Position numbers and translations under genes: made by a program. From Sphingomonadaceae bacterium (GTDB lineage: Bacteria > Chloroflexota > UBA6077), in NCBI GenBank assembly GCA_050261575.1, contig JBLNDL010000014.1, positions 10,054 to 74,053 on the forward strand: a stretch of DNA of 64,000 nt. The letters run 5' to 3'. Positions 10,657-29,738 of the stretch are shown one piece after another. The notes beneath the pieces were generated by a model. That model searched no databases and had not been told where the DNA came from. It was given only the letters and a program-made list of their open reading frames with translations. Position 1 is the stretch's first letter; each line of letters opens with the position of its first letter.

Positions 10657-13098
10657 ATGAGCGCGTCGGCGTCCAGACTGCGGCGGTGGCTGCCGACTCG
10701 GCGGGGTCGGCCGACGGCAGTCCTTCCACTCGGGCTCCAGACCAGGATCGCCCTCCTCGTGGCCTCGGGGCTGCTGGCTCTCATGACTTCGTTCGTGGTG
10801 TTGGGCCTCGCCTCGTTGCGCGAGAGTACCGAGCAGGGCACTCAGCACAGGGTCGCCCTGGCACGGACGGCTGCAGTGCATCTGGACTTCATCCTGGAGC
10901 AGGCCGCCACGATGATCCGCTTGAGCGGCCAGGAACTGGCGGCGGCTCTCCAATCCCGCGACCAAGAGGCTGTTCGGGTGTCGCTGCGGGATGCAGCGCA
11001 CCGGATGGCCACTGTCGCGGATGGCATCCTCCTCTTCGACTCATCGGGACTTCTGCTGCAGTCTGAACCCTCCGATCTCAGCTTCTCCTACCCCTCGATC
11101 GGCCCCGGGGCGTTCGCTGCCCTGGCCTCTGGAGGGGCGATGGCGGTGGACTGGGTGCGCACGCCCCTCGGCGCCGTGGCTCTCGTCGTGGTGCCGTTGC
11201 CCGGAAGCGGCGAGGCCGACGGTGGCTACCTAGCTGCCGCCGTCGACTTCTCGGGCCAGGCTGTGGGCCACTGGCTTCGACAACTGGCACTGGGCAGAAG
11301 CGGGCGCGTGGACATCGTGGACGGTGATGGCGTGGTGCTCACGACGACCGACGAGCAGGATGCCCCGAGCGCCGAGAGCCACGCGGGCTACTTCGCAGGG
11401 TTGATGGCCGAGAGGCGAGCCACCGTGTCCACCTGCTACGACTGCCACACCACCTCCCAGGGGCAGGCGAGGAGCCGCGAGGTGATGGCCTATGCCCCGC
11501 TCCGAGTGGCCGACTGGGGAGTTGTGCTGCGGCAATCCGAAGACGAGGTGCTGGAGCCGACCCACCGGCTGCAGCGACAGGTGCTGGTGCTGGGGGGCGT
11601 CTCGCTGCTGGTTGCCCTCCTGATGGTGTGGCTGACCACCAGGAGCGTGGTGGGGCCCATCCGCGCCCTGACCCAGTCGGCGCGGAGGATCGCGGATGGG
11701 CATCTGGGTGAGGCGGTGGCCGTTCACGGCTCGGACGAGGTGGGTGAGCTGGCTCGCACGCTGGACCACATGAGGGCAAGGCTCCAGCGGTCGATCGAGG
11801 AGATCAAGGCGGGCGCCGCGGAGCTGGAAAGCCGGGTTCGGGAGCGCACGGCGGAACTGGAGCGCTCCGAGGGCGAGCTTCTCCGGCGCAACCGGGAGCT
11901 CTCCACTCTGAACTCCATAGCCGTGGCCCTCAACCAGTCGTTGGACCTGGAGTCCATCCTGAACGTCGCTCTCCTGAACGCGCTGCGGCTGACGGGGATG
12001 GATGCCGGGGCGATCTACCTGCTGGACGAGCACACCGGGGAGCTGGAGTTGGCCGCGCACCACGGCCTCTCGCGAGAGGCTGCCCAGGTGGCTGCGAACC
12101 TGGGATTGAGCGCCAGCCTCTGCGCGGCGGCGGCGCAGGCGGGAGAGCCCATCCTGGTGGAGGACACACACCGCTACGCAAGGGGGGCGAAGGGGGTGCT
12201 GCGCAGCGAAAAGATGAGGTGCATGGTGCGCGTGCCCTTCAAGTCCACCCGTGGCCTGCTGGGGACGATGTGCCTCGGGTCCGGCACCAGCAGGGGCTTC
12301 TCCAAGGCGGAGATGGACCTGCTGACCTCTGTCAGCAACCAGATCGCGGTCGCGGTGCAGAACGCCCGGCTGTACGAGGAGCTGCAGCGCAAGGAGAGGA
12401 TGAGGGGCGAACTGCTGCTGAAGGTGATCACGGCGCAGGAGGCAGAGCGAAAGCGGATCGCCCGGGAGCTGCACGATCAGACCAGCCAGGCCCTTGCCGC
12501 GCTGGCGGTGGCGGTGGAGACCGCCGCCGGTCAGGCGGCCGAGGGGGGAGACGTCGTCGAGAGCCTGGCGCGAATGAAATCGCTGGCAGTGGACACGTTG
12601 GAGGAGATCCACCGCCTGATCTTCGATCTCAGGCCGACGCTGCTGGACGATCTGGGGCTGATCGCCGCGCTCAGGTGGTACGCCGAGACGAGGCTGGGCG
12701 AGGTGGGGATCAAGGTGCGGCTGGAGGTGGTGGGTGAGGAGACGCGGTTGGCACCTCAGATCGAGACGGCGCTCTACCGGGTGGTGCAGGAGGCCGTCAC
12801 CAACGTGGCGAATCACTCAGGTGCACAGAGTTTCACGGTCACGCTGGTCCTCAAACCGGACCGCCTGCAGCTCAGCATGGTGGACGACGGGTGGGGCTTC
12901 GACATGGCCGAGCTAGCCCGCTCCCGTGATCAGAAGCGGGGGCTCGGGCTGATGGGGATGAAGGAGCGGGTGGAGCTGCTGGGCGGGAGCTTTTCGATCT
13001 ATTCGGAGTTGGGTGGAGGCACGAAGATCACGGTGGAGGTTCCGCTCACTGTGGGTGGGGGAGAGGGCGGCGAGGGAGAAGCGGGGCTCGCCGGTTGA
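10657..13098 (+). CDS. sensor histidine kinase: periplasmic domain with c-type heme motif (CYDCH), HAMP, GAF, HisKA_3, HATPase_c
   Basis: TM1 ~aa30-52, periplasmic CXXCH at aa260-264 (nt 11434-11448), TM2 ~aa308-327; HAMP; GAF; ARELHDQTSQAL H-box (NarX/NarL type); C-terminal ATPase. Confidence 0.8.
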   Translation: MSASASRLRRWLPTRRGRPTAVLPLGLQTRIALLVASGLLALMTSFVVLGLASLRESTEQGTQHRVALARTAAVHLDFILEQAATMIRLSGQELAAALQSRDQEAVRVSLRDAAHRMATVADGILLFDSSGLLLQSEPSDLSFSYPSIGPGAFAALASGGAMAVDWVRTPLGAVALVVVPLPGSGEADGGYLAAAVDFSGQAVGHWLRQLALGRSGRVDIVDGDGVVLTTTDEQDAPSAESHAGYFAGLMAERRATVSTCYDCHTTSQGQARSREVMAYAPLRVADWGVVLRQSEDEVLEPTHRLQRQVLVLGGVSLLVALLMVWLTTRSVVGPIRALTQSARRIADGHLGEAVAVHGSDEVGELARTLDHMRARLQRSIEEIKAGAAELESRVRERTAELERSEGELLRRNRELSTLNSIAVALNQSLDLESILNVALLNALRLTGMDAGAIYLLDEHTGELELAAHHGLSREAAQVAANLGLSASLCAAAAQAGEPILVEDTHRYARGAKGVLRSEKMRCMVRVPFKSTRGLLGTMCLGSGTSRGFSKAEMDLLTSVSNQIAVAVQNARLYEELQRKERMRGELLLKVITAQEAERKRIARELHDQTSQALAALAVAVETAAGQAAEGGDVVESLARMKSLAVDTLEEIHRLIFDLRPTLLDDLGLIAALRWYAETRLGEVGIKVRLEVVGEETRLAPQIETALYRVVQEAVTNVANHSGAQSFTVTLVLKPDRLQLSMVDDGWGFDMAELARSRDQKRGLGLMGMKERVELLGGSFSIYSELGGGTKITVEVPLTVGGGEGGEGEAGLAG

Positions 13099-13109
13099 GG
13101 GTGAAGGGG

Positions 13110-13760
13110 ATGGGGAAGATACGGGTACTGCTGGTTGACGACCACGCGATCCTGCGGGAGGGGATACGTGCCCTGCTCGCGCTGTCCAAGGATATCGACG
13201 TGGTGGGGGAGGCTGCCGACGGGCAGACGGGCATCGAGTGCGCGCGGGAGTTGGCGCCGGACGTGGTGCTGATGGATATCGCGATGCCTGTTCTGGACGG
13301 GCTGGAGGCCACGCGCCGGATCAAGGAGCGGCAGAAGGGGACGAAGGTGCTGATCCTGACCCAGCACGAGAATCGGGAGTACGTCTACCCCATCCTGAAG
13401 GCCGGCGCCGACGGGTACGTGCTGAAGAAGGCGGCGGGCACGGAGTTGATCTCGGCCATTCGTGCGGTGCACGAGGGCGGCACCTTCCTCTATCCCTCGG
13501 TGGCGAAGGCGGTGGTGGAGGACTACCTGCGTCCGGACGGGACGGTCGCCGAGCGTCGCCACGCCAGGCTCACAGACCGGGAGGTCGAGGTGCTGAAGCT
13601 GGTGGCGGAGGGGCGCAGCAACCAGGAGATCGCCGACCTGCTCTGCCTCAGCGTCAAGACCGTGACGGGACACCGGACCAACATCATGGAGAAGCTGGAT
13701 CTCCACAGCCGCACCGAACTGGTGAAGTACGCGATTCGGACCGGCCTGGTCCAGCCCTGA
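13110..13760 (+). CDS. NarL/LuxR-family response regulator
   Basis: VLLVDDH...D receiver domain; C-terminal LuxR HTH (EVLKLVAEGRSNQEIA); RBS GAAGGGGA. Confidence 0.85.
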   Translation: MGKIRVLLVDDHAILREGIRALLALSKDIDVVGEAADGQTGIECARELAPDVVLMDIAMPVLDGLEATRRIKERQKGTKVLILTQHENREYVYPILKAGADGYVLKKAAGTELISAIRAVHEGGTFLYPSVAKAVVEDYLRPDGTVAERRHARLTDREVEVLKLVAEGRSNQEIADLLCLSVKTVTGHRTNIMEKLDLHSRTELVKYAIRTGLVQP

Positions 13761-13974: not shown

Positions 13975-15159
13975 ATGGCAGACGATTCCAAGACACCCTT
14001 GGTGGACGAACTGGAAAAGGGAAGCTGGCCCAGTTTCGCCAAAGAAATGAAGCGGCGGGCCGAGAAGAACCTGGCCGCGAAGGACTTGGTAGGCCAGCTT
14101 GAACTCTCCTACCAGGAGAAACGGGTCCACTGGAAGCACGGCGGGGTCGTGGGCGTCAGGGGCTACGGGGGTGGGGTGATCGGTCGCTACTCCGACGTTC
14201 CCGAGAAGTTCCCCAACGCCGCCGAGTTCCACACGATGCGGGTGAACCAGCCCAGTGGCTGGTTCTACACCACCGAAAGCCTCCGCAAGCTGTGCGACGT
14301 TTGGGAGAAGTACGGGACGGGCCTCACCAACATGCACGGCTCCACAGGCGACATCATCCTCCTGGGCACGCAGACGGCCAACTTGCAGGAAGCCTTCAAC
14401 GCCCTGAGCGACGCCGGGTTCGACCTGGGTGGCTCCGGCTCCGACCTACGAACCCCGAGCGCCTGCGTGGGCCCCGCTCGATGCGAGTACGCCTGCATCG
14501 ACAGCCTGGGGATCTGCCACGACATCACTACGACCTACCAGAACGAGATTCACCGGCCGATGTGGCCCTACAAGTTCAAGATCAAGGTGGCGGGTTGCGC
14601 CAACGACTGCGTCGCATCCGTCGCCAGGTCCGATTTCGCCATCATCGGCACCTGGAAGGGCCCTTTGCGGATAGACCAGGCCGCGGTGAAGGAGTACATC
14701 GCCGCGGGCTTCGACGTGAAGGGCGAGGTGGTCGATATGTGCCCCACGAGGGCGCTGTGGCTGAACCAGGATGACAGCCTGGCTCTTGTCGCCGAGGAGT
14801 GCAAGCGCTGCATGCACTGTCTCAACAAGATGCCGAAGGCGATCAAGCCCGGCAGCGAGAAGGGCGCGACGATTATGGTCGGCGGGAAGGCCCCCATCGT
14901 CCGCGGCGCCTACCTCTCGTGGGTGGTCGTGCCATTCATGAAAATGGAGCCTCCCTACACGGAGTTGAAGGAGCTGCTGGAGAAGATCTGGGAGTGGTGG
15001 GACGAGCACGGGAAGTCCAGGGAGCGGATCGGGGAGTTGATCGACCGACTCGGGATGGGCCGCTTCCTCCGCGATCTGGGACTGGAGCCCTCGCCTGCGA
15101 TGGTGTTCCAGCCGAGGTCCAACCCCTACTACTTCTGGCAGCCCGAGGAGGTGAAGTGA
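13975..15159 (+). CDS. dsrA: dissimilatory sulfite reductase alpha subunit
   Basis: ~395 aa; siroheme/FeS Cys clusters ([16 protein letters not shown]), ferredoxin-like insert (CKRCMHCLN); RBS GGAGG. Confidence 0.85.
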
Positions 15160-15160
15160 G

Positions 15161-16225
15161 ATGGCAGAGGCTAGAACCGATTTCGGGCCTCCGTACTTCA
15201 AGGACATGTTGCCTCCGGTGATGGCGGAGAACTACGGCAAGTGGGTCTACCACGAGACGCTGCGCCCCGGGGTGTTGATGCACGTGGCCGAGAGCGGGGC
15301 GGCGGTCTACACGGTGAGGGTCGGCTCGCCCCGCCTGATGAGCATAGACACCATCCGAGAGCTGTGCGACGTGGCCGATCGGTACTGCGACGGCCACCTG
15401 CGCTTCACGAGCCGGCACAACGTCGAGTTTCTGCTGACCGACCCGGGCAAGATCGAGCCGCTGATGGCCGAAATGAAGAGCCGCGGCTGGCCGGTGGGCG
15501 GGACGGGAAACTCGATCAGCAACATCGTGCACACCCAGGGGTGGATCCACTGCCACAGTGCGGCCACCGACGCCTCCGCGCTGGTGAAGTCCATCATGGA
15601 CGAGGTCCAACCCTACTTCGAGAGCATGACGCTGCCCGCGAAGGTGCGGATCGCAGTGGCCTGCTGCCTCAATATGTGTGGCGCGGTGCACTGCTCCGAC
15701 ATCGCCCTTGTGGGGATCCATCGGAAGCCGCCAAAGGTGGACGCCGAGCGGCTGGCGAAGACCTGCGAGGTGCCGAACATCATCGCGGCCTGCCCGACTG
15801 CGGCGATCCGGCCGAACCCGAAGGAGAAGGGAGTCATCATCAACGAAGAGCGATGCATGTACTGCGGCAACTGCTTCACCGTGTGCCCGGCCATGCCCAT
15901 CGCCGACCCGGAGAACGACGGGGTGGCGGTCTTCGTGGGCGGCAAGGTGTCGAACGCGAGGAGCGCTCCGATGTTCTCCCGGCTGGCGATTCCATATCTG
16001 CCCAACAACCCGCCTCGCTGGCCCGAGACGGTGGCCGCGGTGAAGACCATCGTCGAGGTGTACGCGAAGCACGCCCGCAAGGGCGAGCGGGTCGGGGAGT
16101 GGATCGAGCGGGTCGGCTGGGAGCGGTTCTTCCAGTTGACGGGCATCCCGTTCACCGACAAGCACATCGACGACTTCCGCTTCGCTCCCACCACCTTCAG
16201 GACCTCGGCTGCGTTCAAGTGGTAA
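15161..16225 (+). CDS. dsrB: dissimilatory sulfite reductase beta subunit
   Basis: 354 aa; [20 protein letters not shown] siroheme-[4Fe-4S] motif, ferredoxin insert [12 protein letters not shown]; 1-nt gap after dsrA. Confidence 0.85.
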
Positions 16226-16283
16226 AGGAGTGGGATGGTGGGGGCGGGCTCCGCCCCCACCGATCCATCGAAGGGAGTTGGCC

Positions 16284-16475
16284 ATGAGTGAGGATCTGAA
16301 GGATCGGGTGATGGCCTATCTGGCCACGGTGGAGAAGGCGAAGAACAGGGACATCGCGAACGCCCTGGGGGCGCCGAAGCCCGAGGTGGACAAGGCGGTT
16401 GGCGACCTGGCCAAGGAGGACAAGATCGAGTACATCTACATCGGCACCTCCTACGTGAAGATCAAGGGGAAGTAG
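16284..16475 (+). CDS. dsrD: DsrD-like small winged-helix protein
   Basis: 63 aa MSEDLKDRVMAYLA...IEYIYIGTSYVKIKGK; position right after dsrB and size/pattern match DsrD; RBS GGAG. Confidence 0.55.
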   Translation: MSEDLKDRVMAYLATVEKAKNRDIANALGAPKPEVDKAVGDLAKEDKIEYIYIGTSYVKIKGK

Positions 16476-16487
16476 GGGCCCTCACCC

Positions 16488-16533
16488 CGCAACGCGAGCG
16501 AGTGCAGCGTTGCGCCTCTTGCAGAAGGAGAGG
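16488..16533. repeat. compound hairpin repeat: family H copy 4 plus CCTCTT..AGAGG hairpin
   Basis: CGCAACG-CGAGCGAGTGCAG-CGTTGCG, then CCTCTTGCAGAAGGAGAGG; preceded by GCCCTCACCCC. Confidence 0.55.
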
Positions 16534-16559
16534 GGGAACTGGGGACAGCCTCTCCCGTC

Positions 16560-17099
16560 GTGAGAGGGGGCTGGCAGGTAGCGGTGCTGACGGAGTTGAT
16601 CGAGGCGAACCGAGCCACGCTGCTGAAGCGATGGTTCGAATCGATATTGGAGGGTTACCCCTCGGACGTGGCCGGCCTTCTACGTCGGGAGGCTGACCCG
16701 TTCCTGAACCCCGTCGGAAGCACGATCTCCCGGGAGATCGGGACCGTGCTGGACGAGCTTCGCCGTGGCGGGGGCGGCGCCGGGCTCTCGGCCGCGCTGG
16801 ACGCCATCGTTCAGATCCGGGCGGTGCAGGAGATGGAGCCATCCCGGGCAGTCGGGTTCGTCTTCCTGCTCAAGAGGGTGGTGAGGGAGACGGTCGACGT
16901 CGAGGGCGCGGACCCGCGGCTGCAGGCTGAACTGCAGGAGTTCGAGTCCAGGGTGGATGGTGCGGCTCTTCTCGCCTTCGACCTGTACCTGAAGCATCGG
17001 GAGAGGATCCACGAGATCCGCACGAAGGAGGTTCGGGAGAGGTCCGAACGTCTGATGGAGCGGATGAGCCGGATCTACGGGATACGGGAGCCGGTGTAG
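16560..17099 (+). CDS. dsrT: DsrT-like protein (RsbRD_N-type domain)
   Basis: 179 aa between dsrD and dsrM; LKRWFESIL..ADPFLNPVG pattern resembles the RsbRD N-domain/DsrT; start uncertain (GTG 16560 or 16584). Confidence 0.45.
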   Translation: MRGGWQVAVLTELIEANRATLLKRWFESILEGYPSDVAGLLRREADPFLNPVGSTISREIGTVLDELRRGGGGAGLSAALDAIVQIRAVQEMEPSRAVGFVFLLKRVVRETVDVEGADPRLQAELQEFESRVDGAALLAFDLYLKHRERIHEIRTKEVRERSERLMERMSRIYGIREPV

Positions 17100-17312
17100 G
17101 GGCAGGCGGGCGTGTCTGCCCGGCCGAGGTGGAAGCGCGGCGCCGTGTGTGAGGGACGAGGGCGCACCCGTGTGTGCGCCCCTGCCAGGGTGACGCCGCG
17201 TCGGTAGGGGCTGACGCGCATCGGTCTGGGCGGGCCCGAAGAGCAGTCGACGGCGAGAACGCCGAGTCGGCGGGCATGGTGGCAGGGCTGCCGGCCCCCA
17301 CGTTACCCACTC

Positions 17313-17358
17313 CACAACGCGAGCGAGCGCAGCGTTGCGCCTCTCCCAGGGGGAGAGG
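17313..17358. repeat. compound hairpin repeat: family H copy 5 plus CCTCTCCC..GGGAGAGG hairpin
   Basis: CACAACG-CGAGCGAGCGCAG-CGTTGCG, then CCTCTCCCAGGGGGAGAGG; ~70 nt upstream of dsrM. Confidence 0.55.
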
Positions 17359-17425
17359 CAGAGTAGCGGAGAGATCCAGCGAGCGAGGCATTCGTTCCGA
17401 TGGCCGTGAAGCGAGGCAGTGCTAG

Positions 17426-18430
17426 ATGAGAATCCTCTGTCCCATGCTGGCGGTCCTGGCCATCGCCCTGATCGGGCTGGCGGGCGGGAGCGTGAGCGGC
17501 CTGCGAGCCGTCTTCGGCATCGCCATTCCGTATCTGGCCCTCGGTCTCTTCGTCGTGGGGTTGGTGTGGAGGGTGGTGGACTGGGCCAGATCGCCCGTCC
17601 CCTACCGCATACCCACCACCTGCGGGCAGCAGAGATCGCTGCCCTGGCTGAGAGCCAGTAACCTGGAGAGCCCGCACGACACCCTGGGCGTCGTGGGCCG
17701 TATGGCCCTGGAGGTGCTGGCGTTCCGGTCCCTGTTCCGGAATAGCTCCGTGGAGATAAGGGGCAAGCGGCTGCTATACCGCGACCGGAAGCTGCTGTGG
17801 GTGGCCGCGATCTTCTTCCACTGGTCCATGCTGGTGGTGATCCTCCGGCACTCGCGCTTCTTCCTGGAGCCGGTGCCTGTCTTCGTCTCCCTGCTCCAAT
17901 CGTTGGACGGGTTCTTCCAGATAGGCGAGCCGGTGCTGTTCGTCACGACGGTGGGCTTCCTGGCCGGGCTGAGCTACCTGCTGGTCCGCCGGGTGGTGCT
18001 GCCGCAGGTCCGCTACATCTCGCTGCCATCGGACTACTTCCCCCTCTTCCTCCTCATTGGCATCGGGCTCACCGGTGTCCTGATGCGCCACTTCTTCCGC
18101 ACCGACGTGGCGGCGGTGAAGGATCTGACCCTGGGGTTGGTGAGCCTTCAGCCCGTGGTTCCGGACGGGGTGTCGCCCCTCTTCTTCGCCCACCTGCTTC
18201 TGGTCAGCAGCCTCTTCGCCTACTTCCCCGCGAGCAAGCTGATGCACGCGGGTGGCATCTTCCTGAGCCCGACCAGAAACCTGGCGAACGACAGCCGAGC
18301 GCGCAGGCACGTGAACCCGTGGAACCATCCGGTGCCGGTCCACAGCTACTGGGAGTGGCAACAGGAGTTCAAGGACAAGCTGGAGGCGGCGGGGCTGCCG
18401 TTGGATCCCGAGCCGAGTCGAGAAGGTTGA
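17426..18430 (+). CDS. dsrM: DsrM, membrane di-heme b subunit (NarI/HdrE-like)
   Basis: 334 aa, ~6 TM helices, conserved His in TM helices; first gene of the dsrMKJOP block. Confidence 0.8.
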   Translation: MRILCPMLAVLAIALIGLAGGSVSGLRAVFGIAIPYLALGLFVVGLVWRVVDWARSPVPYRIPTTCGQQRSLPWLRASNLESPHDTLGVVGRMALEVLAFRSLFRNSSVEIRGKRLLYRDRKLLWVAAIFFHWSMLVVILRHSRFFLEPVPVFVSLLQSLDGFFQIGEPVLFVTTVGFLAGLSYLLVRRVVLPQVRYISLPSDYFPLFLLIGIGLTGVLMRHFFRTDVAAVKDLTLGLVSLQPVVPDGVSPLFFAHLLLVSSLFAYFPASKLMHAGGIFLSPTRNLANDSRARRHVNPWNHPVPVHSYWEWQQEFKDKLEAAGLPLDPEPSREG

Positions 18431-18431
18431 G

Positions 18432-20069
18432 ATGCCGGAGAAGAAACCGACACCAGAGCAGTTGATGCAGGTGGATCACACGCCGCCCTCGCGGGACTGG
18501 ATGGACGCCCACGTCGACTTCCAGGCCAGGAGGGGCAGCTACTGCTACAGCGCGAAGCCGGAGATGCTCGAATATCTCGGCATGCCCAACCCTCGGAAGT
18601 GGCAGCCCTACGATGAGGACTGGAAGCTTCCCCCGGACTGGAGGGAGACGATCCTGGAGGGGATGAAGGAGAGGCTGGCGAAGTACCGCTCCTTCAAGCT
18701 CTTCATGGACATCTGCGTGCGATGCGGCGCTTGTGCAGACAAGTGTCACTACTTCGTCGGCTCCGGGGACCCGAAGAACATGCCCGTCCTGAGGGCTGAG
18801 CTGATGAGGTCGGTGTACAGGAGGTACTTCACCACCTCCGGGAGGCTGTTGGGACGTTTCGGGGGGGCGCGCGAGCTGACGGAGGAGGTGCTGAAGGAGT
18901 GGTTCTACTACTTCTACCAGTGCACCGAGTGCCGCCGCTGCTCCGTCTTCTGTCCCTACGGCATCGACACCGCCGAGATCACGATGATGGGGCGGGAGCT
19001 GCTCAATCTGGTGGGGGTGAACATCAACTGGATCCTGGAGCCTGCCGCCAACTGCTACCGCACCGGCAACCACCTGGGGGTCCAGCCGCACACCTTCAAG
19101 GACAACCTGGAGTTTGCCGCATCGGATCTAGAAGACATCACGGGGGTTAAGGTCGAGGCGCCGATCAACAGGAAGGGCGCCGAGGTGCTGGTGATCGTGC
19201 CCTCGGCAGACTACTTCGGGAATCCCCACTACTATACCTTCCTGGGCTACCTGGCGATCTTCCAGGAGATAGGGCTGGACTACACCTTCAGCGCGTTCGC
19301 GTCGGAGGGAGGCAACTTCGGCCTGTTCTCCTCGCACGAGATGGCGAAGCGGCTGAACGCTAAGATCTACGCGGAGGCCGAGAGGCTGAAAGTGAAGTGG
19401 ATCCTGGGGGGCGAGTGCGGCCACATGTGGAGGGTGCTGCACCAGTACATGGACACGCACAACGGCCCCGCCGACTTCTTGGAGGTGCCGGTCTCGCCGA
19501 TCACGGGAACAAGGTTCGAGCATGCCAGGTCGACGAAGATGGTGCACATCGCCGAGTTCACGGCGGACCTGCTGCGGCACGGGAAGCTGAAGCTCGACCC
19601 GAGCCGGAACGACCGCTGGCGGGTGACCTACCACGACTCCTGCAACCTCGCGCGGAGCATGGGGCTGTTCGAGGAGCCGCGCTACATCCTGAGGAGTTGC
19701 TGCAACCACTTCTACGAGATGCCGGAGAACACCATCCGGGAGAAGACCTTCTGCTGCGGGAGTGGCTCAGGATTGGGGACCGAGGAGAACCTGGAGATGA
19801 GGCTGCGGGGCGGGCTGCCCAGGGCCAACGCGGTGAAGCACGTGCACGATAAGTACGTCGTGAACCTGCTCGCCTGCATGTGTGCTATCGACAAAGCCAC
19901 TCTTCCGACGCTGATGGAGTATTGGGTGCCGGGGGTGGAGGTCGCCGGCGTGCACGAGCTGTTGGGCAACGCCCTCGTGATGACAGGCGAGAAGAAGCGG
20001 ACCACGGACCTGCGCTTCGAGCCTCTGCCGGGCGTGGAGGAGGCGGAGGGGGTGGAAGCCAATGTATGA
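18432..20069 (+). CDS. dsrK: DsrK, cytoplasmic FeS/CCG-domain subunit (HdrD-like)
   Basis: 545 aa; CVRCGACADKCH and CTECRRCSVFCP ferredoxin motifs; CCG-domain cysteines (CCGSGSG). Confidence 0.85.
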   Translation: MPEKKPTPEQLMQVDHTPPSRDWMDAHVDFQARRGSYCYSAKPEMLEYLGMPNPRKWQPYDEDWKLPPDWRETILEGMKERLAKYRSFKLFMDICVRCGACADKCHYFVGSGDPKNMPVLRAELMRSVYRRYFTTSGRLLGRFGGARELTEEVLKEWFYYFYQCTECRRCSVFCPYGIDTAEITMMGRELLNLVGVNINWILEPAANCYRTGNHLGVQPHTFKDNLEFAASDLEDITGVKVEAPINRKGAEVLVIVPSADYFGNPHYYTFLGYLAIFQEIGLDYTFSAFASEGGNFGLFSSHEMAKRLNAKIYAEAERLKVKWILGGECGHMWRVLHQYMDTHNGPADFLEVPVSPITGTRFEHARSTKMVHIAEFTADLLRHGKLKLDPSRNDRWRVTYHDSCNLARSMGLFEEPRYILRSCCNHFYEMPENTIREKTFCCGSGSGLGTEENLEMRLRGGLPRANAVKHVHDKYVVNLLACMCAIDKATLPTLMEYWVPGVEVAGVHELLGNALVMTGEKKRTTDLRFEPLPGVEEAEGVEANV

Positions 20070-20445
20070 CGGTGGGAAGATCGTCCCAGGGCTGATCCTC
20101 TTCCTGGGGTTGCTGTTGACGCCCTTCTGGTACAACGCCGGGGCGGGGCGGGCGGCTGCAAAGCCGGAGATCGTAAAGCCGGTCGACGAGAAGGCGTGCG
20201 TGGAGCCGGCGGAGTTCATGCGGGCCAACCACATGCGGCTGCTGATCGACTGGCGCGAGGACGCCGTGCGCGGCGGCGACCTGCTGTACGTGGCCGGCGA
20301 CGGGAGGAAGCACGACAAGAGCCTCAGCAACAACTGCATGAAGTGCCACTCCAACAAGGAGGAGTTCTGCGACCGGTGTCACGACTACGCCCAGGTTAAG
20401 CCTAACTGCTGGGATTGCCACACGGTCCCCAAGGAGGGGAAGTGA
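20062..20445 (+). CDS. dsrJ: DsrJ, periplasmic triheme cytochrome c
   Basis: 127 aa, N-terminal signal/TM, three CXXCH (CMKCH, CDRCH, CWDCH). Confidence 0.8.
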   Translation: MYDGGKIVPGLILFLGLLLTPFWYNAGAGRAAAKPEIVKPVDEKACVEPAEFMRANHMRLLIDWREDAVRGGDLLYVAGDGRKHDKSLSNNCMKCHSNKEEFCDRCHDYAQVKPNCWDCHTVPKEGK

Positions 20446-21245
20446 TGCGAGCGGACAGAAGGCAGTTCCTGAAGATTGCCGGGGTCGCTGTCCTGGGGCT
20501 GGGCCTCAAGGGTGGTGCGGATCTGCTGAATGGCGGCCGGCTCGTGGAGGCCTCGGTCGTCGGAGGCGTGCCGGGCCGGAGCCCCCGCGCGGGCAAGCGG
20601 TGGGCGATGGTGGTGGATCTGCCGAAGTGCTGGGAGGGCAAGGGGTGCACCGACTGCATCGACGCCTGCCACAGAGAGCACAACGTTCCCCACTTCGAGG
20701 AGCCGAAGAACGAGGTGAAGTGGGCATGGCAGGACCGTTACGAGGTCGCCTTCTCCGGCCAGGACCCGCGGCTGCTATCCCCCGGCCTCCGGGATAGGTC
20801 CGCTCTCCTGATGTGCAACCACTGCGACAACCCCCCGTGCGTCCGGGTGTGTCCGACCAGGGCAACCTGGCAGCGGGAGGACGGGATAGTGGCGACGGAC
20901 ATGCACCGTTGCATCGGCTGCCGCTACTGCATGGTGGCCTGCCCCTATGGGGCGAGGAGCTTCAACTGGATCGACCCTCGACGGGGTCTGGACATGGAGA
21001 AGGTGAACGCCGATTTCCCCACCAGGACGCGGGGGGTGGTGGAGAAGTGCACCTTCTGTGCGGAGAGGATCGACAGGGGCGGCGCCCCCGCCTGCGTCGA
21101 GGCGTGCCGGCAGAAGGCGCTGACGTTCGGCGACCTGAACGACCCAGCCTCTGAGGTGAGGAGGATCGTCGAGTCGCGGTACACCCTGGTGCGGCGGCCG
21201 GAGTTGGGGACCAGGCCGCAGGTGTACTACGTGGCCTCGCAGTGA
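20445..21245 (+). CDS. dsrO: DsrO, periplasmic Tat-exported 4x[4Fe-4S] ferredoxin-like subunit
   Basis: RRQFLK twin-arginine signal; CNHCDNPPCVRVCP, CIGCRYCMVACP, CTFCAERI FeS motifs; ATG overlaps dsrJ stop. Confidence 0.8.
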   Translation: MRADRRQFLKIAGVAVLGLGLKGGADLLNGGRLVEASVVGGVPGRSPRAGKRWAMVVDLPKCWEGKGCTDCIDACHREHNVPHFEEPKNEVKWAWQDRYEVAFSGQDPRLLSPGLRDRSALLMCNHCDNPPCVRVCPTRATWQREDGIVATDMHRCIGCRYCMVACPYGARSFNWIDPRRGLDMEKVNADFPTRTRGVVEKCTFCAERIDRGGAPACVEACRQKALTFGDLNDPASEVRRIVESRYTLVRRPELGTRPQVYYVASQ

Positions 21246-21252
21246 GGTAGAG

Positions 21253-22425
21253 ATGGTGGAGAAAGCGCTGAGGGGAAGCCGCGCGTATTGGGGCTGGCTG
21301 CTGTTCCTGCTCGCTGTGTCCGTGACAGGGCTCGGCTTCTACCTGTGGCAGGCCGCGACCGGCACCGAGGCATCGGGGCTGAGCAGGGACGTGCCGTGGG
21401 GCTTCTTCATCGCGAACTACACGTTCATGGTCGGGGTGGCAGCTTCGGCCGTCGTGGTGGTGATACCGTACTACCTCCACAGCCAGAGGGAGTTCGGCCG
21501 GATGATCGCGCTGGGGGAGTTCCTGGCCGTAGCAGCGGTGCTGACGACCCTGCTGTTCATCATGGCGGACCTGGGCCAACCCGGCAGGATGTTCAACATC
21601 CTCCTCTACCCGACGCCCAATTCCCCCTTCTTCTGGAATACCATCGTCCTGCCGGGCTACCTGCTGCTGAATCTGGTGATAGCCTGGTTCACCCTGGATG
21701 CCGAGCGGCACGACGTGCCGGTGCCCGGCTGGGTGAAGCTGCTGATCCTGGTGTCGATCCCCTGGGCGATCAGCATCCACACCCTTACGTCGTTCGTCTA
21801 CAGCGGGTTGGTGGCGAGGCCGTTCTGGAACAGCGCCATATTGACCCCCCGCTTCCTCGCCTCGGCCTTCGCCTCGGGTCCTGCGCTGCTGGTGATCCTG
21901 GCGCTGGTGGTGAGGCGTTACACCGGCTACGATCCGGGCAGCAGGGCCATAGAGAAGGTGGCGCTGATCGTCACCTACGCTGCCACCGCCAACCTGTTCC
22001 TGGTGCTGGTGGAGATCTTCGCAGTGGTGTACAGCAACGTCGCGGGGCACATGGAGCACTTCGAATACATGTTCTTCGGCCTCGAAGGGCGCGGCCAGTT
22101 GGTGCCATGGATGTGGCTCTCGGTGATCGTGGCGGTGGTGTCGGTCGCGCTGCTTATCGTCCCGCGGACTCGCAGGAACGAGAAGACGTTGCTGGCGGCC
22201 TGCGCGGGGGTGTTCTTCTCCACGTGGATCGACAAGGGACTCTGCCTCGTGGTGGGGGGATTCGTTCCCTCGACGCTCGGCAGGATCACGGAGTACCTGC
22301 CAACGGTGCAGGAGTGGGTGATCGCTGGCGCGATATACGCAGCCGCGGGGATGTTGTTGACGTTGCTGTACAAGGTGGCCATCGGCGTGAGACTGGAAGA
22401 GGAGGAGGTGCAGGAATGCCGATAA
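21253..22425 (+). CDS. dsrP: DsrP, NrfD/PsrC-type integral membrane subunit
   Basis: 390 aa, ~10 TM helices, NrfD-like topology. Confidence 0.8.
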   Translation: MVEKALRGSRAYWGWLLFLLAVSVTGLGFYLWQAATGTEASGLSRDVPWGFFIANYTFMVGVAASAVVVVIPYYLHSQREFGRMIALGEFLAVAAVLTTLLFIMADLGQPGRMFNILLYPTPNSPFFWNTIVLPGYLLLNLVIAWFTLDAERHDVPVPGWVKLLILVSIPWAISIHTLTSFVYSGLVARPFWNSAILTPRFLASAFASGPALLVILALVVRRYTGYDPGSRAIEKVALIVTYAATANLFLVLVEIFAVVYSNVAGHMEHFEYMFFGLEGRGQLVPWMWLSVIVAVVSVALLIVPRTRRNEKTLLAACAGVFFSTWIDKGLCLVVGGFVPSTLGRITEYLPTVQEWVIAGAIYAAAGMLLTLLYKVAIGVRLEEEEVQECR

Positions 22426-22733
22426 TCACTCTGAGGGGCCGGGACTTCGAGGTGGACGAGGACGGGTTCCTGGAGGATCCGACGATTTGGAACGAGGAGG
22501 TAGCTCGCTGCTTCGCCGACACCGAAGGCATCGCGGAGCTGACCGAGGATCACTGGAAGGTGATCAACTACCTGCACAACTACTACCAGCAGTACGGGAT
22601 CGCCCCGATGATCCGGAAGCTATGCAAAGACACCGGTTTCGATCTAAAATACATTTACCAGCTATTCCCCTCAGGCCCAGCCAAGGGAGCCTGCAAGCTG
22701 GCTGGTCTGCCGAAGCCCACCGGGTGCGTGTAG
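22416..22733 (+). CDS. dsrC: DsrC (TusE/DsrC family) with conserved C-terminal arm
   Basis: 105 aa ending ...GACKLAGLPKPTGCV (two conserved Cys in the flexible arm); RBS GGAGGAGG; overlaps dsrP 3' end by 10 nt. Confidence 0.85.
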   Translation: MPIITLRGRDFEVDEDGFLEDPTIWNEEVARCFADTEGIAELTEDHWKVINYLHNYYQQYGIAPMIRKLCKDTGFDLKYIYQLFPSGPAKGACKLAGLPKPTGCV

Positions 22734-22770
22734 GCCATCATTTCGGAGTTGAGGAGAACAGGGCAAGAGG

Positions 22771-22959
22771 ATGTACGTCATCACTATCAACGAGGATAAG
22801 TGTGAGGGCGACGGGGAGTGCGTGAGCACCTGCCCGGTGGAGATGTTCGAGCTGAAGAACGGCAAGGCCGTCCAGGTGGGCTCGACGGACGACTGCCTCG
22901 GCTGCGAGAGTTGCGTGAGCGTCTGCCCCAGCGGGGCGATCACGCTGCAGGAGATGTAG
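22771..22959 (+). CDS. small 2x[4Fe-4S] ferredoxin
   Basis: 62 aa; CEGDGECVSTCP and CLGCESCVSVCP. Confidence 0.7.
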   Translation: MYVITINEDKCEGDGECVSTCPVEMFELKNGKAVQVGSTDDCLGCESCVSVCPSGAITLQEM

Positions 22960-22973
22960 CCTAACGGCAACAG

Positions 22974-23000
22974 CGAAGGGGGGTGGAAGGCCCCCCTTCT
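22974..23000. terminator. GC-rich hairpin between the convergent dsr operon and the dsrMK-like operon (possible bidirectional terminator)
   Basis: CGAAGGGGGG-TGGAAGG-CCCCCCTTC followed by T-rich TTCTCGATTCC. Confidence 0.5.
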
Positions 23001-23006
23001 CGATTC

Positions 23007-24602
23007 CTACCACTCGAGATAGGGAGGGAGGTCGGACATCGCGTTCACGATCAACTCGGCCAGGCCGCCGTAGTGGAGGTTGTGTTTCTCCCCGATGCCG
23101 TAGAACTCCAGCAGCCCCCGCATCTGCCCCTTGCAGTTGGAGCAGGGGGCGCAGACGTACTTGGGGATGGATGGATCCATCTCCCCCTCGAAGGCTTCGA
23201 GTATCTGCTTCAGCTTCGTCCGGCCCGAGATCGCGTTCCGCCACTCGGGGAAGTTGAGCGCCTGCATGATTGCGAAGCCGCTGCCACCCCCGCAGCAGTA
23301 GTTCTCCACGCCGTGCGGGGCCATCTCCCGGAAGCGTGGGGCGATCCGCCGCAAGATCCTGCGCTGGGGCTCCACGATCCCCATCAGCCGCACGACGTTG
23401 CAGGGATCGTGGAGGGTCACCGGGAAGTCGTTTCGGCCGGGGTCCAACTCCAGCCTGCCGGAGGCGACGAGGCCGTCTAGCAGGGTGAGGCAGCTCTCCC
23501 TGGGCACGTTGTACTCGGCTGCGAATATGCGGTCGGCGATGACCGAGAGCGCCTTGTGGGCGTGGCCGCACTCGCCGATCACGATCTTCTTCACCTTCAG
23601 CTTCTTCGCCACCTGGGCGTGCCTGAGGGCGATGCGGGCGAACTGGACGTCGTCGTACCAGAGGCCGTAGTTGACGGCGTCGTATCCGAGCAGGTCGCTG
23701 GAGAGGGTGTAGCTTAGCCCTGCCCGTTCGAAGACGATGGCGAACGCCTCCGGGTTCTCCGGCCAGGCCACGAACTCGCCCGCATTGTGGAGCAGCAGGA
23801 TATCCGCCCCCTCCTTGTCCACCGGCCACTCGAAGCTGAGGCCGGTGCGGTCCGTGACGTCCTCCTGGAGGAACTCGATGTTGTTGGCCAGCGCGGCCGG
23901 TGTCATCCCCGTGCTGGAGCCGACCCGAAGCTGCTGGATCGTTCCCTGCTGGTGGATTTCCTTTGGGGCGATCCCCATCTCCATGCTGAACAGCTTCCTG
24001 ATCTCGTGGGCCACGAGCCCGTTGTCCACGCCGATGGGGCACGCCTGGGCACAGCGGCGGCAGAGGTTGCAGCGGTAGGCCAGCTCCGCCAGGCGGGCCA
24101 CGGTTCGCCAGTTCAGCTCGACTTCCGCGCCGGACAGCTTCGCCCTGAGCCTCCCCGCGGGGGAAAGGTACTTCCTGACGATACGGCGGAGGACCTCCGT
24201 GCGGAAGCTCGGGCGGTAGGCTGGGAGGCGGCCGCTGGCCTGGTAGACGTGGCAGGCGTCGGCGCAACTCTGGCAGCGGGCGCAGTTGTCCAGGGAGAGC
24301 ACGAGCGGCTGCCAGAAGGCCCAGTTGCTGTCGCGAGAGAGCAGCTTCCGAAGCCCTCGGAGGAAGCTCTCCACCAGCGTCCTCTCCGCCTCGGGCGAGC
24401 CCGGTTTGGGGATGGCGATGGCGGAGTAGCCATCCAGGGAGGCCTCAAGGGTCTTGCGGCGATCGGACCTGACCCCCTGCAGGGGGGGGAGTGGGGCCTC
24501 GCAGGGGAAGGGGAGCGGCATCAACCCCTCCGAGCGCGGCTGAAACAACGGGTCGGTCTCCCGACCGAAGTCCCGCTCGTTCAACTCGGGATAGCCCTCC
24601 AT
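23007..24602 (-). CDS. DsrK/HdrD-like FeS (CCG-domain) oxidoreductase, paralog 2
   Basis: CARCQSCADACH, CNLCRRCAQACP, CCGGGSGF; similar architecture to dsrK; ATG overlaps upstream stop (TGATG); RBS GGAGG. Confidence 0.75.
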   Translation of the reverse strand: MEGYPELNERDFGRETDPLFQPRSEGLMPLPFPCEAPLPPLQGVRSDRRKTLEASLDGYSAIAIPKPGSPEAERTLVESFLRGLRKLLSRDSNWAFWQPLVLSLDNCARCQSCADACHVYQASGRLPAYRPSFRTEVLRRIVRKYLSPAGRLRAKLSGAEVELNWRTVARLAELAYRCNLCRRCAQACPIGVDNGLVAHEIRKLFSMEMGIAPKEIHQQGTIQQLRVGSSTGMTPAALANNIEFLQEDVTDRTGLSFEWPVDKEGADILLLHNAGEFVAWPENPEAFAIVFERAGLSYTLSSDLLGYDAVNYGLWYDDVQFARIALRHAQVAKKLKVKKIVIGECGHAHKALSVIADRIFAAEYNVPRESCLTLLDGLVASGRLELDPGRNDFPVTLHDPCNVVRLMGIVEPQRRILRRIAPRFREMAPHGVENYCCGGGSGFAIMQALNFPEWRNAISGRTKLKQILEAFEGEMDPSIPKYVCAPCSNCKGQMRGLLEFYGIGEKHNLHYGGLAELIVNAMSDLPPYLEW

Positions 24603-25507
24603 CACTTCGCCTCCGAGGCCGCGTCGGCCCAACTCTCGTCGGGATCGATGTGGGGCGCGGACCAGCCGACCGGCCGGGCCAGGTTGGATCGCATGCGGTC
24701 CAGCATTCGGGGGTCGCCGAGGTTAGGGGCATCGTCCCAACGCACCTGGTGGTAGGTGAAGTACTTGGCGACGAAGTGGGTCATGTGAGTGAATGGCAGG
24801 TAGATCAGGAACAGGGCGGCCACGACGACCTGGGCGGCGACGGCGGGGCTCACGTGGGGCGGCGTGCCGAAGGTGAGCGCTCCCCGGAGGAACGCTCGAA
24901 GTTGGGAGAGGGAGGGGTCCGCGGTGAGCCAGGCGAACGCGGCAGAGAGGAAGACCGCGAGCAGGAAGATCAGGTTGACGTAATCCGCGCGCGTGCTGGA
25001 GTTCCTGAGCCGCGCGTCGGTGAGGCGACGGCGCAGTAGGGAGAGCGCCCCGAACGTGGCGGAGAGGAGCCCGGCGGCACCGGTGGCGTGGGTGAACCCA
25101 TCGAGGACGCTCCACCAGGGGGGCGGGTCGCCCGCGGGCTGCAGGGCGGCGCCTAGGACGAGCAGCAGGGTGAAGCCGAAGAGGAGGTAGATGCCGGCGT
25201 GGAACGGGAAGGAGGCGCACCAGTGGGGGCGATTGTGGTGCCAGAGGCTGCGGACGAGCAGCATCTCCTCCAGCATCGCCCGGATCTCTCCCGATAGGCT
25301 AGTGTCCCGGGGGCGGGTCCACCAGTCTGGATCCTCGAAGTAGGAGCCGCCGTGGTCTGCCTTGCCCTTTTCATGGGGCACGGGGTAAAGCTCCCAGCGG
25401 AGGTGCATCGGTGCGCGCGCGTACTTGGCGGCGGTCAGCGCGACGCCGGTGAAGAAGGCCAGGACCGAGATGTAGGTAAGCGCCAGCAGCAGCGACGGTC
25501 CGATCAA
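24602..25507 (-). CDS. DsrM/HdrE/NarI-like membrane heme-b protein, paralog 2
   Basis: 301 aa, 5-6 TM helices with conserved His; TTG start with RBS GGAGGA; translationally coupled to the downstream DsrK-like gene. Confidence 0.65.
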   Translation of the reverse strand: MIGPSLLLALTYISVLAFFTGVALTAAKYARAPMHLRWELYPVPHEKGKADHGGSYFEDPDWWTRPRDTSLSGEIRAMLEEMLLVRSLWHHNRPHWCASFPFHAGIYLLFGFTLLLVLGAALQPAGDPPPWWSVLDGFTHATGAAGLLSATFGALSLLRRRLTDARLRNSSTRADYVNLIFLLAVFLSAAFAWLTADPSLSQLRAFLRGALTFGTPPHVSPAVAAQVVVAALFLIYLPFTHMTHFVAKYFTYHQVRWDDAPNLGDPRMLDRMRSNLARPVGWSAPHIDPDESWADAASEAK

Positions 25508-29736: not shown

Positions 29737-29738
29737 GG

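Follow-up and report, generated by a model that had tools for sequence, protein, structure and literature searches.

A complete reductive-type dsr locus, probably for sulfite reduction, in a high-GC Chloroflexota bacterium

Does a block of dsr genes in a high-GC genome labelled Sphingomonadaceae serve the reduction of sulfite or the oxidation of sulfur, and to which lineage does it belong? A sequence-only reading of the window (the whole 64-kb stretch of DNA analysed here) had proposed a complete reductive-type dsr locus from a less studied lineage, and family models, motifs and the placement of DsrA bear this out, with Chloroflexota as the lineage. We conclude that the block very likely serves dissimilatory sulfite reduction in an uncultured Chloroflexota bacterium of high GC content that has UBA6077 among its closest relatives. 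It is a complete, ordinary-looking cluster for sulfite respiration, the last step of sulfate respiration.

Gene content and layout of the locus

The 11 genes of the block lie on the plus strand at or near the coordinates first proposed (13975–22959). Nine of the 11 products (the seven subunits of DsrAB and DsrMKJOP, together with DsrC and DsrT) pass curated family models and have intact cofactor motifs; the models for the seven subunits are NCBIfam equivalogs, each scoring above its curated cut-off. The GC content is 64.3% in the dsr block and 65.6% in the window, and composition is uniform over the entire 64 kb. The sulfite reductase alpha and beta subunits are encoded by dsrA (13975–15159; TIGR02064, 569 bits against a cut-off of 393) and dsrB (15161–16225; TIGR02066, 518 bits against 342). 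DsrA contains the cluster cysteines C165-x5-C171...C209-x3-C213 (Cx5C...Cx3C), and those of DsrB (C131...C168-C169-x3-C173) are conserved in an end-to-end alignment with 3mm5_B and 2v4j_B.

The DsrMKJOP membrane complex is present in full, as had been claimed. It consists of the membrane dihaem cytochrome b DsrM (17426–18430; NF038037, 486 bits, cut-off 300), the cytoplasmic HdrD-like Fe-S/CCG subunit DsrK (18432–20069; NF045796, 722 bits, cut-off 400), which has two CxxCxxCxxxC motifs and CCG, the trihaem cytochrome c DsrJ (20062–20445; NF038038, 167 bits, cut-off 100), which has three CxxCH motifs plus Cys46, the Tat-exported Fe-S subunit DsrO (20445–21245; NF045797, 303 bits, cut-off 200; RRQFLK Tat motif; 266 residues in an independent gene call), and the NrfD-type membrane subunit DsrP (21253–22425; NF045798, 400 bits, cut-off 350). 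The window also contains ccmABCEFH, a cytochrome c maturation operon of System I, which fits a haem-c DsrJ. DsrC (22416–22733; PF04358, 135 bits; TIGR03342, 124 bits) ends in CKLAGLPKPTGCV, and both cysteines of its diagnostic C-terminal arm, C93 and C104, are in place. The 62-residue ferredoxin encoded by fdx (22771–22959; Pfam Fer4 families) is not the plain 2x[4Fe-4S] protein that it had been taken for: it has seven cysteines rather than eight, with CxxDxxCxxxCP as the first motif and CxxCxxCxxxCP as the second. A motif survey found cysteine at the variant position in 39 of 42 dsr-linked homologues; the residue is Asp in the window and in the related locus L001, Ala in L006 and Glu in L028.

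DsrD (16284–16475) is a 63-residue winged-helix protein of a Firmicutes/Chloroflexota-type variant. The window protein alone scores no match to the Pfam DsrD model PF08679, so that direct HMM confirmation formally failed, and the identity survives only through transitive evidence from homologues, position and fold. Homologues lie immediately 3′ of dsrB in 55 of 80 related loci, 22 of 34 aligned sequences match PF08679, and the profile of the alignment reaches PDB 1ucr (DsvD) at E=3.9e-6. An AF2 model (pLDDT 81) has a wHTH fold, with Z-alpha-like proteins as the top structural matches. The YWSSGSTT motif of Desulfobacterota DsrD is absent; compared with the Desulfovibrio protein, the window DsrD has YIYIGTSY in its place and is 15 residues shorter.

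The DsrT call stands on its own model, PF14361 (RsbRD_N; an RsbRD N-terminal-like domain), which the protein matches with 66 bits (cut-off 24). The gene spans 16560–17099, and its real start is possibly a GTG at 16584. Its position between dsrD and dsrM had been described as uncommon, and the locus survey and the literature refute this. An MKJOP-type dsrM directly follows dsrT in 23 of the 80 related loci, and in 16 of those 23 the genes run consecutively from dsrD, 14 of them as D-T-M and two (L005, L044) as D-C-T-M. According to the paper that defines the DsrT family, dsrT always lies 5′ of dsrMKJOP (PMC6018805), and DsrABDNCTMKJOP clusters are known from several lineages (PMC10504309). The order dsrD-dsrT-dsrM is canonical.

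Two gene pairs that flank the block were overlooked in the sequence-only reading. A conserved two-component pair lies 5′ of dsrA, beginning with a sensor histidine kinase (10657–13098, plus strand; Pfam domains weak dCache, HAMP, GAF, HisKA_3 and HATPase_c) and followed by a NarL/LuxR-type response regulator (13110–13760, plus strand; Response_reg, 102 bits; GerE HTH, 73 bits) that ends 214 nt before the dsrA start. By tblastn, the Chloroflexota loci L001, L002, L003 and L006 have a kinase homologue of 68–81% identity at this position, and two Dehalococcoidia loci, L028 and L054, have one of 38–40%. The regulator is 86–89% identical in the same four Chloroflexota loci, a conservation equal to or above that of DsrA. 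Convergent with the dsr operon on its 3′ side, on the minus strand, is a second DsrMK-like pair. K2 (23007–24602) has DsrK as its best NCBIfam match, at 347 bits under the cut-off of 400, and 21 of the 80 dsr loci have a homologue of at least 50% identity, which adjoins dsrC in eight. Its partner M2 (24602–25507), a NarI/DsrM-like membrane cytochrome b (PF02665, 38 bits; weak DsrM match, 29 bits), accompanies K2 in related loci such as L006 (60% identity).

Placement of DsrAB

The solved structures that best match DsrAB are the reductive enzymes of Archaeoglobus fulgidus and Desulfovibrio. In the structure search DsrA scores highest against A. fulgidus 3mm5_A (573 bits), D. vulgaris DsrA being markedly more distant at 472 bits. 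The top DsrA match is a Chloroflexi MAG at 88% identity. Identity is 56–88% to reductive bacterial-type sequences, including 65–69% to Carboxydothermus, Paradesulfitobacterium, Pelotomaculum and Desulforamulus, against 47% and 44% to the two oxidative-type references, whose gene context was verified (L088, dsrAB-EFH-C-MK-L-JOP-N; L087, dsrAB-EFH-C). In neighbour-joining (NJ) trees with these two oxidative references, the window DsrA falls among the reductive bacterial-type sequences. The reductive/oxidative split and a five-member Chloroflexota clade that includes the window each appear in 200 of 200 bootstraps, and the concatenated DsrAB tree agrees.

Gene content points the same way. Oxidative rDsr clusters of the Allochromatium type (dsrABEFHCMKLJOPN; L088, L087) have homologous DsrAB, DsrC and DsrMKJOP, together with dsrEFH and dsrL; dsrD and dsrT are missing from them. 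The window has the reverse pattern. When all coding-like ORFs of the 64 kb were scanned with Pfam, no DsrE/DsrH, DsrL-like, DsrN-like, Sat, AprAB or Qmo protein turned up, which confirms the reported absence of dsrEFH and dsrL from the window; dsrEFH, dsrL, dsrN, sat, aprAB and qmo were not found either in the recovered flanks (~4.5 kb on the left, ~10 kb on the right). Some points speak against our reading as a sulfite-reduction module: dsrN is missing, DsrD fails its Pfam model and lacks YWSSGSTT, and several close DsrAB relatives, among them Pelotomaculum and Syntrophomonas, are syntrophs not known as sulfate reducers.

Proposed function, direction and host

By homology with characterised systems, DsrAB would reduce sulfite at its sirohaem-[4Fe-4S] site in DsrB, and the two C-terminal cysteines of DsrC would take up the sulfur intermediate to form a trisulfide. 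DsrK, the CCG subunit of DsrMKJOP, would then reduce the DsrC trisulfide to sulfide, and through the complex this reaction would be coupled to the quinone pool and hence to energy conservation. This pathway is outlined, and Chloroflexota with dsrD and without dsrL are reported, in PMC10591310. DsrD, an allosteric activator (PMC8794893), would raise DsrAB activity on binding. DsrT would be a regulatory accessory of dsrMKJOP. We infer further that DsrAB may receive electrons from the co-transcribed seven-cysteine ferredoxin, that the kinase/LuxR-type pair probably controls expression, and that the K2–M2 pair is probably a second quinol-to-thiol/disulfide route.

The physiological electron acceptor may be sulfite, drawn from sulfite, thiosulfate or organosulfonates, or else sulfate if sat, aprAB and qmo lie elsewhere. 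The second case would make the locus the terminal module of a complete sulfate reducer with sat, aprAB and qmoAB(C) elsewhere in the genome, which we regard as possible and rather unlikely. In many sulfate reducers dsr is unlinked from apr, sat and qmo, which counts for it, as does the text of PMC10591310 where it credits Chloroflexota with most genes of the Dsr pathway. Against it, Table S1 of that paper gives zero for sat, aprA, aprB, qmoA and qmoB in the syntenic relative UBA6077; of its Chloroflexota MAG rows, the five with readable counts in the excerpts all lack aprAB, and sat, aprAB and qmo are in neither the 64 kb nor the recovered flanks, an argument that MAG incompleteness weakens. 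The reductive direction is likewise a matter of inference, and gene content alone does not fix it: organisms that combine DsrAB of the reductive type with DsrD, such as cable bacteria and Desulfurivibrio, can oxidise or disproportionate (PMC13293266). That this machinery runs in reverse or disproportionates here, oxidising sulfide, sulfur or thiosulfate the way cable bacteria and Desulfurivibrio alkaliphilus do, is improbable. In its favour, organisms with this gene set can oxidise sulfide and often carry a cryptic type II DsrEFH that sequence models miss (PMC13293266), and for the seven-cysteine ferredoxin variant a cluster of higher potential would be expected; yet the window has neither a tusA/yeeE-linked small-gene triplet nor a DsrE/DsrH domain, type II dsrEFH was found mainly in Desulfobacterota and Nitrospirota (PMC13293266), and DsrD and DsrT are markers tied to reduction (PMC6018805, PMC10504309).

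The record label raises the case that the locus sits, after lateral transfer, in a Sphingomonadaceae (Alphaproteobacteria) genome. Its 100%-identical MnmE (MGE5618218.1) and CcmF, both on a 112,077-bp contig, are indeed named '[Sphingomonadaceae bacterium]' by NCBI. Apart from these self-matches, the named matches of both proteins down to ~53% identity are almost all Chloroflexota, Anaerolineae or Dehalococcoidia, the exceptions being one MnmE at 67% (Actinobacteria) and one CcmF at 55% (Nitrospirae), and no other Sphingomonad is among the 120 matches listed for each. Housekeeping and dsr genes are joined at 99.99% identity in an independent Logan assembly and also share contigs in Chloroflexota relatives (134,280 bp in UBA6077; 120,544 bp in a JGI assembly), and the uniform composition of the whole 64 kb likewise speaks against transfer into such a genome, which we consider extremely unlikely. 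These protein matches place the host in Chloroflexota, with the GTDB class UBA6077 among its closest relatives, and the label of the public record is apparently wrong.

Comparison with known dsr loci

The novelty that had been implied for the locus is overstated, as similar dsr loci in Chloroflexota are already published: PMC10591310 and its Table S1 describe Chloroflexota with dsrABD(T)MKJOP and without dsrL. The Chloroflexota MAGs UBA6077 (GCA_002436065) and 'clean759' (DAHVXI010000063) share the order HK-RR-dsrAB-D-T-MKJOP-C-fdx. This entire order recurs in the MAG loci L001 and L006, and L002 (to dsrO) and L003 (to dsrM) follow it up to the ends of their short contigs. UBA6077 and L006 also have the convergent DsrMK-like pair. 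Like the window, these MAGs have dsrD and neither dsrL nor dsrEFH (see also Table S1 of PMC10591310). Their DsrA is 73–88% identical to that of the window, which is a different species-level population with a best DsrA match of 88%.

Firmicutes-group loci (Syntrophomonas zehnderi, Desulfosporosinus, Carboxydothermus and Desulfotomaculum relatives) and A. fulgidus (3mm5), the best structural match, belong to the same DsrAB subfamily as the window (62–69% identity) and share its short 'YLYxGTS'-type DsrD, and Syntrophomonadaceae have the same dsrABD-T-MKJOP-C order. Many Firmicutes differ in having a two-subunit DsrMK only (DsrK ~37% identical) and an eight-cysteine ferredoxin 5′ of dsrA, whereas the seven-cysteine form in the window lies 3′ of dsrC; the kinase/regulator pair was not seen in Firmicutes loci. 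All components and cofactor motifs match those of the biochemical reference Desulfovibrio vulgaris (2v4j, 1ucr), including a DsrC arm whose two cysteines have ten residues between them, a distance of eleven positions. In Desulfovibrio the dsr genes are spread across several loci.

Two features set the window apart from the Chloroflexota MAGs. The additional ~2 kb inserted between regulator and dsrA in L001 and L002 are missing from the window. The dsrT-dsrM spacer, ~50–70 nt in L001, L002, L003 and L006 (sequences inspected), is unusually long in the window at 326 nt and contains an extra hairpin repeat. The repeat, a REP-like element absent from the earlier reading, consists of GCAACGC-N11-GCGTTGC followed by a second hairpin, and repeat search, pattern search and folding located two plus-strand copies, one directly 3′ of the dsrD stop codon (16483–16548) and the other inside the spacer (17308–17373; fold z = -2.9).

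The dsr operon and its gene order

Because the window is GC-rich (65.6% on average) and has many spurious ORFs, we chose coding frames by codon-position GC and then checked them against family models. A sequence-only reading of this DNA had described a complete dsr block, and we found it as described, with small refinements of the coordinates: eleven co-directional genes on the + strand at 13975–22959, in the order dsrA-B-D-T-MKJOP-C-fdx. NCBIfam equivalog models recognize DsrA (TIGR02064, 569 bits against a curated cut-off of 393), DsrB (TIGR02066, 518 against 342), DsrM (486 against 300), DsrK (722 against 400), DsrJ (167 against 100), DsrO (303 against 200), and DsrP, which has an NrfD domain (400 against 350). 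The cofactor cysteines are intact in DsrA (C165/C171/C209/C213 as Cx5C...Cx3C, and CxxCxxC at 277) and in DsrB (C131/C168/C169/C173 as C...CCx3C, and CxxCxxCxxxCP at 232), and those of DsrB align with the A. fulgidus (3mm5_B) and D. vulgaris (2v4j_B) structures. Both subunits contain the inserted ferredoxin domain. The five DsrMKJOP subunits are contiguous, and the motifs for cofactor binding and export are in place: DsrK has CCG and two [4Fe-4S] motifs, DsrJ three CxxCH plus Cys46, and DsrO the Tat signal RRQFLK. DsrC matches PF04358 with 135 bits and ends in CKLAGLPKPTGCV. Its C-terminal arm contains both cysteines, as had been claimed, the penultimate C104 and C93 eleven positions upstream (...GAC93KLAGLPKPTGC104V), the pair that marks DsrC as opposed to its TusE/RspA-type relatives.

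The 179-residue protein before dsrM, previously called DsrT-like, scores 66 bits on PF14361 (RsbRD_N; cut-off 24) over profile positions 1–103 of 104; an RsbRD N-terminal-like domain is the DsrT definition of Anantharaman et al. (PMC6018805). Between the end of this gene (17099) and dsrM (from 17426) there is no other gene. The suggestion that the order dsrD-dsrT-dsrM is uncommon did not hold. Among 80 related dsr loci, 23 have dsrT directly before an MKJOP-type dsrM, and the order is a consecutive D-(C)-T-M in 16 of these, including Syntrophomonas zehnderi and other Syntrophomonadaceae, with dsrC between dsrD and dsrT in two (L005 and L044). In the literature, dsrMKJOP is always preceded by dsrT (PMC6018805), and DsrABDNCTMKJOP clusters are found in several lineages (PMC10504309). 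Five Firmicutes loci (L011, L016, L067, L073, and L080) have a permuted dsrT-K-J-O-P-M block on the upstream side of dsrAB, in which dsrM follows dsrP and does not precede dsrK.

The dsrT–dsrM spacer (17100–17425) is 326 nt long, compared with ~50–70 nt in the four closest relatives, and holds no coding-like ORF. The last ~20 nt 5' of the dsrM start (GCGAGGCAGTGCTAGATG) are conserved, and the extra sequence contains the second copy of a hairpin, GCAACGCG(A/G)GCGAG(T/C)GCAGCGTTGCG, that is present in three intergenic copies on the same strand of the window. Copies 1 (16483–16548, after dsrD) and 2 (17308–17373, before dsrM) are 66 nt long and 79% identical, including a second hairpin; the third, a core hairpin at 30272–30296, lies between convergent genes after folK. 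We rejected the idea that the repeat is a regulatory RNA or binding site specific to dsr, as the core hairpin also follows folK, the repeat was found neither in the 80 related loci nor in a metagenome scan, and a single copy had a better fold than shuffled sequences. The hairpin resembles a REP-like or terminator element and seems peculiar to this genome. At Rfam gathering thresholds the whole window contains no known RNA family, a sigma-70 promoter scan gave no match, and terminator-like sites did not exceed those in shuffled sequences.

A DsrD subtype and the Pfam model

The DsrD candidate is a cysteine-free protein of 63 residues whose gene starts 59 nt past dsrB. The HMM check of this call came out in two parts: the protein itself does not match PF08679 even at E<=5, giving weak matches to generic winged-helix models, Z-alpha among them, but homologues, profile, position, and fold uphold its identification. 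By tblastn, 55 of the 80 related loci have an ORF directly 3' of dsrB that is 42–76% identical to it. We aligned 33 of these positional homologues with the window protein; 22 of the 34 sequences match PF08679, the best with E=7.6e-21, and the profile of the alignment matches the D. vulgaris DsvD structure 1ucr (E=3.9e-6) over residues 2–68, almost the full length. An hhalign comparison with a D. vulgaris DsrD sequence not taken from a database gave a probability of 96%.

A single-sequence AlphaFold (AF2) model of the candidate (pLDDT 81) is a winged helix with H-E-H-H-E-E topology. The top PDB matches of this model are Z-alpha domains and generic winged helices, and 1ucr is not among the top 50, so the structural comparison does not point to DsrD in particular. 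DsrD has been described as having a fold of this class (PMC8794893), and we regard the modeled fold as consistent with DsrD but not discriminating. The Desulfobacterota motif YWSSGSTT is replaced by YIYIGTSY in the window protein, and a variant (Y/F)LYxGTS(Y/F) is common to the Firmicutes and Chloroflexota homologues. Judged by homology and position, the 63-residue protein is a DsrD of this Firmicutes/Chloroflexota-type variant. The Pfam model under-detects this subtype, a relevant gap given how widely dsrD serves as a marker of the reductive direction.

Reductive-type DsrAB in a Chloroflexota genome

The nearest relatives of the window DsrA are in Chloroflexota MAGs (86–88% identity, then 73–82%), followed by reductive enzymes of the Firmicutes group at 62–72% (Paradesulfitobacterium, Carboxydothermus, Pelotomaculum, and relatives of Desulfotomaculum). 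The best solved structure for the window DsrAB is that of A. fulgidus DsrAB. For oxidative references we took two full-length representatives from a 50%-identity representative library and inspected their genomic context. P0243 lies in dsrAB-EFH-C-MK-L-JOP-N (locus L088) and P0252 in dsrAB-EFH-C (locus L087), and we class both as oxidative because they are accompanied by dsrEFH, in L088 also by dsrL. The window DsrA is 47% identical to P0243 and 44% to P0252, compared with 56–88% to reductive references; identity to the archaeal Thermocladium and Pyrobaculum DsrA is 31–32%. In a neighbor-joining DsrA tree with these two as its only oxidative references, the oxidative pair formed its own clade with the window DsrA outside it in 200/200 bootstraps, and the window DsrA grouped with those of the Chloroflexota MAGs clean759, clean1545, SBF912, and UBA6077, also in 200/200. 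The window fell in the same neighborhood in a tree built from 75 concatenated DsrAB sequences. The reductive branching expected from the earlier reading was thus recovered, and these neighbor-joining trees support a reductive bacterial-type DsrAB.

The reading had also reported no dsrEFH or dsrL, and this absence now extends to ~4.5 kb on the left and ~10 kb on the right of the 64-kb window, with dsrD present. Pfam and NCBIfam searches of the coding-like ORFs of the window found no DsrE/DsrH, DsrL-like, DsrN-like, Sat, AprAB, or Qmo protein, nor did exact-protein look-ups in the flanks, where ThiS-like, methyltransferase, heat-shock, and MerR genes lie on the left and TctC, amidohydrolase, and shikimate-pathway genes on the right. 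The recently described DsrEFH type II is missed by sequence models, yet its genes lie beside tusA/yeeE (PMC13293266); we rejected its presence in the window, which has neither a tusA/yeeE neighborhood nor a run of three small unassigned genes. We hold oxidative use of the locus, or use in disproportionation, to be improbable.

The source record names a different host. MnmE (31159–32637) and CcmF (54900–56912) have 100%-identical entries on one 112,077-bp NCBI contig labelled 'MAG: ... [Sphingomonadaceae bacterium]' (MnmE, MGE5618218.1). All other named matches, from 88% down to ~53% identity, are to Chloroflexota, Anaerolineae, Dehalococcoidia, and Ardenticatena, except that one MnmE (67% identity) carries the label Actinobacteria and one CcmF (55%) the label Nitrospirae; apart from the identical entries, no sphingomonad sequence is among these matches. 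The linkage of dsr to housekeeping genes recurs in relatives: UBA6077 has dsr and ccmF on one 134,280-bp contig, and dsrA, mnmE, and ccmF of a JGI relative all lie on a 120,544-bp contig. On the basis of the MnmE and CcmF matches and this linkage, we conclude that the contig is from Chloroflexota and that the Sphingomonadaceae bin label is wrong, apparently through mis-binning or mislabelling of the source MAG. If the label were accepted as it stands, dsr genes would be wrongly ascribed to an aerobic alphaproteobacterial family. We also rejected lateral gain of the dsr block within this genome, as its composition shows no break and relatives have dsr on the same contigs as ccmF and mnmE; the related dsr loci are likewise GC-rich (60–67%). 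The window DsrA (13975–15159) was not returned by a search of a large protein collection, where its best match was 86% identical and MnmE and CcmF were found at 100%; we treat the missing entry as a database gap.

A Logan assembly of SRR24035586 reproduces window positions 21168–40256 at 99.99% identity and joins dsrOPC to mnmE. The window thus adds one more well-assembled Chloroflexota dissimilatory-sulfur locus, 64 kb long and in agreement with an independent assembly. This kind of locus is already known: the closest relatives have the same dsr synteny, and Chloroflexota with dsrD and without dsrL have been described (PMC10591310; PMC6018805). Mildly new are a conserved two-component pair, a ferredoxin variant with seven cysteines, and the DsrD subtype that Pfam under-detects. 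The practical value is cautionary, in the blind spot of the Pfam DsrD model and the mislabelled source record.

Electron acceptor, regulation, and electron supply

By homology, the locus is predicted to encode DsrAB-catalysed sulfite reduction (pathway summarized in PMC10591310). DsrC would be the co-substrate of DsrAB, its trisulfide would be recycled by DsrK of DsrMKJOP, and DsrD would act as an allosteric activator of DsrAB (PMC8794893). In Table S1 of Diao et al. (PMC10591310), UBA6077 is scored 0 for sat, aprA, aprB, qmoA, and qmoB and present for dsrABCD, dsrMKJOP, and dsrT, and none of the five Chloroflexota MAG rows with readable counts has aprAB. Because of these rows we lean towards an organism that respires sulfite, thiosulfate, or organosulfonates. 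A complete sulfate reducer would have the same dsr genes together with sat, aprAB, and qmoAB(C), which are missing from the window and its flanks as well as from the UBA6077 record, and we consider this the less probable lifestyle, at well under even odds. The window population could help settle the question of sulfate versus sulfite for Chloroflexota.

Upstream of the operon, a sensor kinase (HAMP-GAF-HisKA_3) and a NarL/LuxR-type regulator occupy 10657–13760 and end 214 nt 5' of dsrA. The pair is kept at the same place in Chloroflexota dsr loci, where the regulator is 86–89% identical, and is more distantly conserved in two Dehalococcoidia loci. We refer to it as a candidate dedicated regulator of the dsr operon.

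A second DsrK-like/DsrM-like pair lies on the minus strand at 23007–25507, convergent to the dsr operon. Against the DsrK model, its K subunit reaches 347 bits, under the cut-off, and it has homologues of at least 50% identity in 21 of the 80 dsr loci, often directly 3' of dsrC. The pair is neither an MKJOP-type DsrMK nor the two-subunit DsrMK found in Firmicutes; a DsrMK-only copy beside DsrMKJOP is known from other lineages (PMC10504309). Homologues of the pair adjoin dsrC in Chloroflexota, Thermodesulfobacteriota, and Firmicutes loci.

The ferredoxin after dsrC, which had been read as 2x[4Fe-4S], is present, but it is not a plain 8-Cys protein: its first motif is CxxDxxCxxxCP, leaving seven cysteines. 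The variable position is Cys in 39 of 42 dsr-linked homologues; the exceptions are Asp in the window and its closest relative, Ala in UBA6077, and Glu in one Dehalococcoidia locus. A ferredoxin with this motif is predicted to have a [3Fe-4S] or an Asp-ligated cluster. Overall, the locus and its relatives show that in this clade the dsr module is inherited together with housekeeping genes, the two-component regulator, the second DsrMK pair, and the variant ferredoxin.

Tentatively, and with the joint reading more doubtful than not, the dsr operon of this clade may be a self-contained, signal-controlled unit for sulfite respiration. The kinase would sense the periplasm and, through the NarL/LuxR-type regulator, induce the operon on sulfite or a related sulfur oxyanion; the clade-specific 7-Cys ([3Fe-4S][4Fe-4S]-type) ferredoxin and the second DsrMK would feed electrons; and the organisms, which would have no APS pathway at all, would be obligate respirers of sulfite, thiosulfate, or organosulfonates and not sulfate reducers.

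The window holds other operons and clusters. One is an operon for System I maturation of cytochrome c (ccmABCEFH), which fits the locus because DsrJ is a haem-c protein. At 42055–46695, the gene for a family III CoA-transferase precedes those for the delta ferredoxin, VorB-like alpha, beta, and gamma subunits of a 2-oxoacid:ferredoxin oxidoreductase, which could supply the dsr-linked ferredoxin with reduced ferredoxin. Window positions 1–3908, and likewise locus L085, contain a sulfur-carrier-type biosynthetic cluster with ThiS-like, homocysteine S-methyltransferase, ThiF/MoeB-like adenylyltransferase, DUF2795, Rrf2 regulator, JAB/MPN metalloprotease, and CysK genes, which resembles a cysteine or homocysteine pathway of the CysO/Mec+ type.
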